From Octopus sinensis (lineage: Eukaryota), in the NCBI RefSeq assembly GCF_006345805.1, contig NC_042998.1, positions 48,980,001 through 49,044,000 of the forward strand: DNA of 64,000 nucleotides. Reading direction: 5' to 3'. The position numbers were made by a program, and so were the translations under genes. How positions within the stretch are numbered: the stretch's first letter is position 1; each line of letters starts with the position of its first letter. Positions 8,605 through 46,945 of this stretch are shown piece by piece. The notes beneath the pieces were generated by a model, which saw only the letters and a program-made list of their open reading frames with translations, did no database searches and was not told where the DNA came from.

Positions 8605-8884
8605 TTAAGAGATGAGGAACTATGTACATTATTTACATTATTTACATTCGACAGATATTAAGAGCGTGGGTTAAGAGCGTGGTTAAGAGCGTGGGCTACT
8701 AACCCCAAGATTCCGAGTTCAATTCCAAGCAGTGACCTGAACACTAACAACAATAATAATAATAATAATAATAATAATAACATCGAAAAATACCTTAGGT
8801 TCGAAATTTCCCCAAGACACCTGAAGAAGGCTGGAGGGTATATCAGCTGAAACGTGTTAACAACAAACAAGATGAGGACAAATG
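8605..8884 (+). mobile_element. Composite tRNA-head + (AAT)n + hammerhead-like element
   Basis: tRNA-like tggttaagagcgtgggctactaacccc..gagttcaattcc, then (AAT)n, then gacac-CTGAAGA-a-ggctg..cagct-GAAAC-gtgtt. Confidence 0.6.
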
Positions 8885-9202
8885 TTTAAATTCTACCAAG
8901 GTCAACTTTACCTTTCTTTTCTCCAGAAATTAAAGACAATTAATATTACTTTGATAGACATCATGACTCAGTGTTCGACCAAACTACAACATTTCCAAGC
9001 ATCTTTGCGTAATTAATATGTTCAATTCATAACTACATAGTCCAGGTTTCAATGTTACCTTATGGCATTTTAGAGAAGCCTAGTTAATATTTAAAAGAAA
9101 AGGTTTTGTAACACAGAAGCACAAGCAGAACTGGAGTGGTATCAAGATTTATTAATTATGATAATGTATTTGGTATTCTTATTAACTACATACTTTAAAT
9201 AT

Positions 9203-9497
9203 GTGGAGGCACATGGCCTAGTGGTTAGAGCAGTGGACTCAGTCAAGGGATTGTGGGTTCGAATCTCAGACCAGGTGTGTGTTTATAAGTGAAACACCTA
9301 AGCTTCACATGGTTTCAGTAATGGCAAACTTCTGCTGACTCTTTCGCCATGACTTTTTTTCACTCTTTCCTCCAGCATCTAGCAGCTCACCTGCAACGGA
9401 CCAGCGTCCTGTCCAGGTGGGGAACCTATACACCAATGAAACTGGGAAACCAGCCCTTATGAGCCAGGTATGGCTCAAGAAGGAACAAACAACAACA
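9203..9497 (+). mobile_element. SINE family C head with V-domain-like 3' module
   Basis: tRNA head tggaggcacatggcctagtgg..ggttcgaatc; cctgcaacggaccagcgtcctgtccagg..gaaactgggaaac..tgagcc; (AAC)n tail. Confidence 0.75.
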
Positions 9498-10026
9498 CAT
9501 ACTTTAAATATGCATTTTACTCAGGATCTTATTTACAGGATAATATTCAATACACATAACTTGAGGGTCTTATTCTGCTATACGCCCAGTGTCAAAAGAA
9601 TATTAATGAATATTAAGGATGCTCATGCAGAGCATAAAGTGAGTACCCTGTGAATGGTCAGTGTAAGCCTTGATCAACTAAGCAAAAGTGATGTTATCCA
9701 GTGACAACAAGGCCACACTCATATAGAAATATGTCAGAGCAATAGCATCAGAGAACCCCTTTAAAGTTCAGCTGAATAATCACAGATTCTATTTTAGAAG
9801 GCAATGCCTAACAAAATAAAAAGGAAATTACTGGTACAACCTGGACCTTATCTGAATGGAAGGGGACATTGCAAACTTTGCATAGACGAAAAGAATCATT
9901 CTAAAATTTCACACAATTTGAATGTTTCCCCGAATTCAAAAAGTGAAAGCTTTCAAAGTGAGATGTGATGTAGAGGGCACAAGTCCAAGAAAGGCCTTAC
10001 TATATGTCAATATTACTGTCTTCTTA

Positions 10027-45500: not shown

Positions 45501-46238
45501 ATTCCAAAAGCAATAGATTAACATGCTTCTTTTATTCATCTTATCTTTATTCATCCAATAGAATGGATGGCTAGACATCTACGTTAATGCCAAGCTTACT
45601 GAAGGCAACACTTTTTTTAGGGTTCCTTTTTTCATCCTGCCTCCGATATCGGAAAAGCAGTGTTACACCTAGTTAGGACTGCTTGCCACATAAAGAAGGA
45701 CACGTATCTTGCAGATGCCTTCAGATTCAGCAGAGAGGCGGCCATCACCCTCTGTACCACCTACGCGTGGAACTCTGGCTAGGAACTTCCTTTGCCTGTT
45801 CCTGTTGCCATATCCCGTCGTCTTAGAACTTTCAAATCACCTTCAAACTTCTTCCACAATGAATTTGTTTTAAGTGGAACTGGCTTATGCCACTCATAAC
45901 ACTCTCGCGTCCATTTAGCCTAGACACCAGTGCATATTGATGCTACTTGGAAGAAAGACCATCTAAATGCATAGACACTAACAGGTTATCATCAGGTGAC
46001 TAAGGAGCCCTATCTACCCCAGTTTTTGAATCAAAGTGTTCCTTCTCCGAGACAGATTGCTGACCAAGGTTAACGAGTTCTGTCCACCCGTTTTTGGATG
46101 GCCATTGACTTTTCTGAGTTCCTCCGCTCTTTGCCGGGTTTTCTTTTTCATCCCGCAGAGTGTCCAAAAATCACTATTTCATCCTCCTCACCAACCAAGC
46201 CTAGTAGAGTTGCCAGTTTAGTCGCCGACGACCCGACC
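42525..46238 (-). mobile_element. Near-full-length decayed RTE (BovB-like) LINE
   Basis: APE motifs WNVRTL, DIAALSETR, ISAHAPT; RT motifs DGIPLEVYK, PESQCGFRAGR, GAKQGCVLA; C-terminal RYKDKL..SWE; 5' UTR extends to ~46238. Confidence 0.88.
42857..43150 (-). mobile_element. SINE family C head + V-domain-like module, inserted in the RTE
   Basis: Minus strand gatggactggcatcccgt..acagaaactgggaaaccgggcccatgagcc. Confidence 0.8.
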
Positions 46239-46509
46239 TTATTACAGCTGCACAGCATCACATCTTCATGTTGATAATTGGCTATTTTGGCAAGATATCA
46301 TTAAATCACTTCTATTATTTTTTTCTATTTGTACCACTTTTACATATTGCCTGTTATTTTCATTGGTTATATATTATATTTTGTCATATATATATATATA
46401 TATATATATATATTATATATATATATATATTATATATATATATATATATATGTATGTATGTATGTATGTATGTATGTATGTATGTTGTGTGTGTGTGTAC
46501 ATATATATA

Positions 46510-46945
46510 ATTAGAGGATATGTTAACCTCGTAAAGGTATAGTTACATCCAAGGAAATACTGGTTCAATACCTAGTATTACTGGGGAATGAAATTCCCTT
46601 AAAGCATACAGTTTATATCCAGTTAAATGAAGAAAAGAAAATGGAGAGTAGGAAGTTAATGATTATTTATTATTAACAAATTGGTCATCTTTACTTCTTA
46701 CAGCCGTTTCAATTAATACTTAATAATTTAATTACAAATTTGTGCATTAAATTTGCATTTATCTGATATGAGCATAATTTCATCAGAGAAAGAGTTATAC
46801 CTCGAGATGTTACATCCCGACCTATCAGTTCATATCAGCAGACTAAATATTAGGGTTTATAATTTGTATTATTATATTCTCATGTGAAGGGTTTACAGAT
46901 TGACTACAATATAATTAGGGATAAAGTAAAATAAAGGAAAACTAT
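46510..46945 (-). mobile_element. Penelope-pLTR-like element in (TA)n
   Basis: Non-coding AT-rich unit between TA microsatellites, carrying a hammerhead motif. Confidence 0.55.
46694..46791 (-). ncRNA. Type-I hammerhead ribozyme with canonical core
   Basis: tttct-CTGATGA-aatta..(long stem II)..taatt-GAAAC-ggct-GTA-agaag. Confidence 0.75.

Follow-up and report, generated by a model that had tools for sequence, protein, structure and literature searches.

Minimal hammerhead ribozymes have been described in the ends of Penelope-like elements (PLEs), where they also occur as opposite-strand pairs and in solo truncated copies (Cervera & de la Pena 2014, PMC4209133). Retrozymes have been interpreted as non-autonomous PLE derivatives, an argument made from co-occurrence and pLTR similarity (bioRxiv 10.64898/2026.07.22.740005). 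The protein of a PLE cleaves both strands of AT-rich DNA and begins cDNA at two sites within the RNA, by which the tail is defined; ribozyme cleavage is not needed in vitro (PMC11167929). In Octopus vulgaris, PLEs are abundant and have been recently active, and the available part of that report does not mention ribozymes (PMC13282606). A literature search combining hammerhead, Penelope and octopus found nothing specific. PLE hammerheads and PLE-moved retrozymes are already published, and the stretch analysed here adds new families, which may already be catalogued in Repbase or Dfam.

The window is a stretch of 64,000 nucleotides of the Octopus sinensis genome, and contains four hammerhead-bearing units, denoted U1 to U4 (Table 1). 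Our main reading, with a probability of about 0.85, is that all four are insertions of PLE sequence, U1 and U3 being truncated PLE ends and U2 and U4 units that encode no protein.

Table 1. Features of the four hammerhead-bearing units (positions are those of the window).
Feature	Position	Strand	Description
U1, whole	8594-8883		Inverted insertion; 5′-truncated PLE 3′ end
U1, inverted arm	8594..8659	-	5′-truncated, with a PLE tail of ~35 nt
U1, tRNA-like head	8660..8740	+	In the parent 3′ UTR/pLTR; A box partly lost, B box 8715-8726
U1, internal tract	8749..8783	+	(AAC/AAT)n, between head and hammerhead
U1, hammerhead	8816..8858	+	Minimal type-I, broken by a 3-nt loss at the cleavage site
U2, whole	29164-29790		Palindrome, one insertion
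U2, left arm	29164..29527	-	Outer 3′ site (unit position ~364-369) abutting (TA)n
U2, hammerhead, left copy	29448..29499	-	A.A at the base of stem II, 8-nt palindromic helix III, GUU site
U2, right arm	29528..29790	+	Inner 3′ site (unit position ~275) abutting (TA)n
U2, hammerhead, right copy	29556..29607	+
U3, left	35967..36140	-	3′ stub of an older Neptune-type PLE subfamily; hammerhead 36038-36073
U3, right	36178..36359	+	3′ stub of a younger Neptune-type PLE subfamily; hammerhead 36234-36269; (TA)n end
U4	46509..46945	-	5′-truncated copy of a ~570-bp unit without an ORF, outer 3′ site end, in (TA)n
U4, hammerhead	46694..46791	-	Canonical type-I; 5-bp stems I and II, long loop 2, near-palindromic helix III, GUA site

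Hammerhead motifs of the window

The hammerhead-type motifs are present in all four units at the positions originally predicted, and the units are as dissimilar as had been proposed, with no alignable sequence common to U1-U4 beyond chance matches of 12-16 nt. The predicted cores held for U4, which is canonical; those of U1, U2 and U3 are non-canonical or broken. With a type-I descriptor and a canonical core, the window gives one match (U4), where 60 local dinucleotide shuffles average 0.05; relaxing the core gives three (U4 and both U3 arms), against a shuffle mean of 0.10 and a maximum of 1. The U1 and U2 motifs fail the descriptor with either core, U1 because 3 nt are missing at the cleavage site of the window copy, and U2 because its stem II begins with an A.A mismatch. 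Motif searching was positive by descriptor, for U4 and the U3 arms, and negative by Rfam, where hammerheads are absent among the 150 of 182 matches listed and microsatellite miRNA noise was seen. Fold z-scores of the four motifs (-0.30 to +0.41) indicate a stability not above that of shuffles and are uninformative.

The proposed (TA)n setting is found for U2 (26 of 29 insertions flanked by TA), U3 (29 of 30 copies) and U4, and not for U1, whose (AAT)n is internal to the element. Two inverted pairs had been proposed; the U2 palindrome is a single insertion, while the U3 arms belong to two subfamilies and are 78-82% identical, and so represent two insertions in one TA tract. The window contains no Penelope ORF, as had been noted: ten PLE protein pieces searched against it gave 0 matches.

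The density of four hammerhead sites per 64 kb compares with ~1.4 expected from a sample of 800 kb (Poisson P = 0.054), so that the four sites form no real cluster and are close to the genome background. The sample consisted of 80 evenly spaced 10-kb stretches, with the genome taken as 2.72 Gb. It contained seven U1 insertions and six U3-like copies, corresponding to ~24,000 (9,600-49,000) and ~20,000 (7,500-44,000) copies respectively, and no full U2 or U4 copy. A first look at the genome gave 1393 candidates for U1, 2429 for U2, 678 for U3 and 1703 for U4, all of them high-copy families; the best 40 candidates per unit were scored, which favours long and similar copies. The free position N7 is the polymorphic core site in U1, U2 and U3.

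The window also holds short degenerate interstitial repeats of the TTAGGG type (33521-33607 and 39724-39769), and a 34-bp tandem repeat of ~9 copies (37596-37911) that seems to have arisen from the SINE common in this genome. The frames at 53154-54217 and 47594-48073 resemble a mariner transposase and a fragment of a Helitron-type helicase, respectively.

U1 and its parent element

By its sequence, U1 is the 5′-truncated 3′ end of a PLE that carries reverse transcriptase (RT) and GIY-YIG endonuclease (EN) and is found elsewhere in the genome. At three loci (L100, L094 and L285) the EN C-terminus is continuous into the U1 head. A query taken from the upstream ORF retrieved 30 loci, some of them duplicates, with the hammerhead downstream in 25 and the head downstream in 27, where it lies in the 3′ UTR just upstream of the hammerhead. 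U1 as a free-standing SINE was dropped on this count, the head being native to the PLE. The parent is a decayed element of ~2.6 kb, whose copies contain stops and frameshifts. Its RT matches Pfam RVT_1 (E 9e-9); its EN has no Pfam GIY-YIG match and is assigned by motif. RT precedes EN upstream of the terminal repeat, and the inverted 5′-truncated arm, the tail at one end and the pLTR hammerhead of EN+ PLEs are all present. In one locus (L347) the U1 tail passes directly into the ORF start, forming a pLTR-ORF junction, and the frame, as read from the sequence, appears to open just before the hammerhead. A zinc-finger CX2-5CXXC linker is missing, so that the parent is of the Penelope/Poseidon type by motif; this linker has been described in Neptune and not in Penelope or Poseidon elements (PMC8557442).

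Of 31 two-ended U1 insertions, 29 carry the tail on exactly one arm; in 16 cases the forward tail was set by the query itself. The window copy has the same arrangement, its (+) arm stopping at 8883 without a tail. Tandem duplications of ~4.6 kb that hold the parent ORF together with an inverted pLTR arm were seen at four loci (L339-L342), and a 5S rRNA-like copy (95 bits) lies close to a U1 insertion (L102:2708-2826).

The cleavage site of the U1 hammerhead is a non-canonical GUU. In the window copy the missing 3 nt remove helix III and U16.1; the site is of full length in 41 of 43 arms found with a tail-only query and in 6 of 8 arms of the random sample. The same loss recurs in the window (8849-8858) and in L209, L210, L294 and L297. 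It occurs in both N7 states and within a TG repeat, and the sister arms are of full length. It may be a scar of cleavage, but it is rare in unbiased sets (2/43 and 2/8 arms), and slippage in the TG repeat would suffice to explain it.

The tRNA-like head of U1

Most U1 copies are short and begin at the head, followed in order by the (AAT/AAC)n tract, the hammerhead and the 3′ end. The head can be aligned to 27 host tRNA sequences representing six isotypes (z 1.6-8.3), the best being tRNA-Ala(TGC). The elements that we take to be its A and B boxes, by comparison with the box consensus, retain tRNA spacing. Rfam gives the head no tRNA score, and among phage sequences there is a weak tRNA-Gln match only (E 2). 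Short U1 copies share a tRNA-related head with both boxes with tRNA-derived SINEs, and are not a separate non-autonomous element, the head being part of the PLE.

The sense strand of the 2.6-kb unit contains no run of four or more T. Dinucleotide shuffles contain 3.6-3.8 (P ~0.01, from two copies that are near duplicates) and a codon shuffle 3.7 (P 0.012), while runs of three T are present in normal number. Only four T4 runs occur in 33.7 kb of aligned copies, scattered and each in a single copy. Three other PLEs have 4-10 TTTT runs, and 30 other long ORFs used as a control have 104 against 81 expected, four of the shorter ones having none. The TTTT-free unit and the A/B-box head hint at transcription of the U1 parent by RNA polymerase III.

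The accumulation of 5′ ends at the head can be explained in another way, to which we would give about even odds. A small hairpin would act as a stalling point for RT or as an annealing point for cDNA, the head would no longer function, and the parent would be a PLE transcribed by Pol II in the ordinary way. The break points, at about -7, -4 and +4, coincide with the edges of a 4-bp hairpin, and both the missing Rfam score and the TTTT-free control ORFs are in keeping with such an origin. It accounts less well for boxes at tRNA spacing in a head that aligns to host tRNAs with z up to 8.3, and for a whole unit free of TTTT when other PLEs are not. Among 41 arms that reach the head start, 36 stop at -12..+5 and three extend into the ORF, which is many stops for a hairpin of 4 bp.

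A reading that joins these observations is offered tentatively and may well prove wrong. The U1 parent would be an autonomous coding PLE, read by Pol III from a tRNA-derived promoter in its pLTR; the 2.6-kb unit would be kept free of TTTT, and the (AAC/AAT)n leader would replace a cap. The promoter would shed a SINE-like RNA of ~300 nt, which would lie behind most of the estimated copies, and PLE inversions would be primed on two RNAs, one per start site. If this is true, U1 would be unusual in that Pol III transcribes a retroelement coding for protein, and would connect PLEs with hammerhead SINEs of the Sm-alpha type. In literature listings no published PLE with a promoter of the tRNA or Pol III type was found, nor was a tRNA-like A/B-box head with a TTTT-free unit in a PLE found in print.

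Elsewhere in the window, fragments of non-LTR retrotransposon ORFs are present at 12973-13803, 19813-20694 and 22438-25075, several of them ending in (AAT)n; the sense strands of 19813-20694 and 23950-25075 are likewise without TTTT.

U3 and its parent element

U3 copies have a common 3′ end next to the (TA)n tract and a variable 5′ end. On walking upstream, one copy was found to be longer by 620 bp, and this part, used as a query, retrieved 30 loci, of which 28 have the U3 hammerhead downstream and nine a GIY-YIG frame upstream. One locus (L181) encodes RT (Pfam RVT_1, E 1.7e-5) and EN (GIY-YIG, E 0.004), with a CX4CX2C linker before the EN, and two of six random U3 copies have EN upstream. 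Since the RT and EN frames are contiguous with U3, it represents the truncated end of an autonomous-type PLE. Like the EN+ PLEs, the parent has RT and then GIY-YIG upstream of the terminal repeat, a fixed 3′ end with a variable 5′ end, and a minimal hammerhead, here with U6. The U3 parent would be of the Neptune type and the U1 parent of the Penelope/Poseidon type, assignments made by motif and linker only.

Position 6 of the U3 core is U in 79 of 81 copies and A in none, while position 7 takes all four letters across the 81 copies. Lunse, in 2017, is said to have treated core variants of PLE hammerheads, and a U6 core may be described there. Weak activity of U3 is plausible, given that a natural A6C variant is slow yet active (PMC3088659).

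Several near-identical copies of Neptune-type PLEs with open RT and GIY-YIG frames of 775-781 aa were seen (L193:1532-3874, L194 and L195:2745-5069), and are possibly candidate active elements. The 781-aa family has an extra upstream frame of 479 aa and, near its (TA)n end, a U3-A8 variant hammerhead. At three other loci (L219, L269 and L271), the relaxed descriptor picks up a repeated motif that combines a CUGCCGA-like core with GAAA (six matches in 800 kb).

The units U2 and U4

U2 is a 557-bp unit of low GC with no ORF and one hammerhead; its copies are 5′-truncated, tandem and inverted, and one locus (L191) carries a head-to-tail array of ~14 units. Lacking an ORF, arranged in tandem and carrying a type-I hammerhead in each unit, it falls within the sequence definition of a non-LTR retrozyme. 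The A.A mismatch of stem II and the GUU site are common to almost all copies, and N7 is the only polymorphic core column. More hammerhead families, with canonical cores, GUC sites and an 8-nt palindromic helix III, were seen at L255:9054, L257:1958, L270:9276 and in the 5′ flank of L195; the family at L255 is related to U2 but diverged from it, and its stem II base pair is intact.

After removal of four duplicate loci, 29 U2 insertions were compared. The 3′ end lies at unit position 266-280 or 361-372 in 28 of them, and 22 are longer than one unit. Where both ends of an inversion are in view (two that run off the locus being excluded), the arms end at opposite 3′ sites in 16 of 17 cases; in the window the arms are 99% identical. 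The 5′ ends are scattered, with 2 of 47 within 7 nt of the cleavage site against 1.3 expected, which argues for multimeric or circular templates rather than cut monomers. Within one insertion, haplotypes are discordant in 5 of 149 comparisons between inverted arms (48 expected) and in 15 of 293 between tandem units (94 expected). The arms thus behave as coming from one source, as expected of a multimer or circle. Contigs from four sequencing runs, none recorded as RNA, contain the unit joined end to start; tandem DNA would account for this just as well.

Growth of the arrays at the DNA level, by satellite-like unequal exchange after single insertions, would fit the haplotypes shared within insertions as well, and this model is discussed in the recent preprint (bioRxiv 10.64898/2026.07.22.740005). 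We consider it unlikely compared with reverse transcription of multimeric or circular RNA, as many dispersed copies span 1.1-3 units, their 3′ ends fixed and their 5′ ends random, and the unit junction is crossed in inverted arms too; slippage does not predict this. The two fixed starts and inverted arms of U2 give direct insertion-level support for copying of a non-LTR retrozyme by PLE machinery.

U4 copies are older, with 80-85% identity. Two 3′ ends ~115 nt apart are used, and in all ten adjacent inversions they lie on opposite arms. Seven copies with unrelated flanks have a common 5′ start; both ends of the unit overlap by 6 nt, and the longest copies consist of one unit and this overlap. 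An apparent tandem at one locus (L187) proved to be a local duplication with a SINE in it, and was rejected. Since neither an ORF nor a true head-to-tail array occurs in 33 loci, a non-autonomous nature is likely, and U4 is probably a non-autonomous retrozyme-like unit. Preferential conservation of the core was found for U4, at 0.960 against 0.907 for the rest of the element (P = 0.004), although alignment edges and AT tracts may make this difference look larger than it is.

Among the PLE families seen, none proved to be an autonomous partner with sequence in common with U2 or U4; 150 of 5029 EN candidates were scored, and among GIY-YIG loci the partner search returned neighbouring insertions only. 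The description of all units as non-autonomous stands for U2 and probably for U4, and fails for U1 and U3, whose copies are truncated 3′ ends of protein-coding PLEs. The predicted links to GIY-YIG/RT ORFs exist for these two, elsewhere in the genome (for U1, the head downstream in 27/30 ORF loci; for U3, a GIY-YIG frame upstream in 9/30 loci).

Insertion mechanism and the role of the hammerhead

The paired 3′ ends of U1, U2 and U4 appear to match the mechanism described for a PLE protein (PMC11167929). In such a mechanism the protein would nick AT-rich DNA, and cDNA would begin at either of two fixed sites internal to the RNA, spaced by ~35 nt in U1, 94 in U2 and 115 in U4. If both strands were primed, head-to-head arms would result, each with one start site. 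U2 and U4 would likely be copied in trans by a Penelope-like enzyme that targets (TA)n. Together with the RT/EN parents of U1 and U3, these paired ends bear out the proposal of minimal PLE-type hammerheads moved by a Penelope RT.

A MITE-like DNA transposon could also leave palindromes, in which case the hammerhead motifs would be there by chance. We regard this as scarcely credible. The near-identity of the U2 arms and the folding of the motifs, no more stable than shuffles, would suit it; the paired-end pattern contradicts it, as arms finish at two different fixed sites and the centres are random 5′-5′ joins. The arrays are moreover head-to-tail, U1 and U3 are linked to RT-EN frames, and the descriptor matches lie above the shuffle level.

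The arms of U1 inversions give a different picture from those of U2. N7 differs between sister arms in 10 of 22 pairs, against 9.5 expected if the arms were independent and a background difference of 3.7% per site. This suggests that the arms derive from two different RNAs, although N7 is the one informative site and may be a mutation hotspot. Such an origin of U1 arms was not found in print. Arm haplotypes thereby make the formation of tandem and inverted PLE structures testable, with two templates for U1 and one source for U2.

The hammerhead lies 55-300 nt from these start sites, and is thus carried by nearly every stub. As the copies cross the cleavage site, their templates were uncut or re-joined. 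The hammerhead is likely to act as a weak processing site that depends on dimers, and not to drive individual insertions. The original prediction had gone further, to four separate non-autonomous elements spread by self-cleavage and RNA circles. The anatomy of U2 fits such a scheme, most U1 copies are indeed short and start at the head, and variation confined to N7, with the conserved core of U4, suggests selection for the ribozyme in source lineages. As separate elements, U1 and U3 are refuted by their contiguity with RT/EN frames; three of the four cores are non-canonical or broken, copies run across the cleavage site, and the 5′ ends of U2 are not clustered there. Ribozyme mutants of an anole PLE still insert in vitro (PMC11167929). 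A ribozyme-driven spread is for these reasons very unlikely.

Comparison with known systems

Compared with the described EN+ PLEs (PMC4209133; Craig 2021, PMC8557442; Frangieh 2024, PMC11167929), U1 and U3 are alike in RT with a C-terminal GIY-YIG, in 5′ truncation, in the extra base after A9 and in the palindromic helix III, and U1 also shares the inverted truncated arm and the tail at one end. The one-arm tail of U1 matches the PLE signature described in PMC8557442, and the apparent overlap of its hammerhead with the ORF start resembles that of the anole Poseidon (PMC11167929), while the (TA)n targeting of U3 is that of EN+ Neptune-type PLEs. U3 differs from these elements by a U6 that is fixed across subfamilies. 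The U1 parent differs by the A/B-box head and (AAT/AAC)n leader in its pLTR and by its TTTT-free sense strand.

U2 resembles the animal non-LTR retrozymes (Cervera & de la Pena 2020, PMC7229834; bioRxiv 10.64898/2026.07.22.740005) in its ORF-less, low-GC, head-to-tail organization, with one type-I hammerhead per unit and a range from monomer to ~14-mer. At 557 bp it is larger than the described circles of 170-400 nt and within the 51-972 bp of the preprint, U2 being known here as DNA. It differs by a weakened-looking core, and by a PLE insertion signature that is directly visible.

The nearest case to the tRNA-like head and hammerhead of U1 is that of Sm-alpha and Sj-alpha of Schistosoma (PMC6765202, PMC8490949), in which a type-I hammerhead comes after a Pol III-type promoter, an order that resembles that of short U1 copies. 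Sm-alpha, however, is a non-coding tandem unit, whereas the U1 head lies within a protein-coding PLE whose copies are dispersed inversions.
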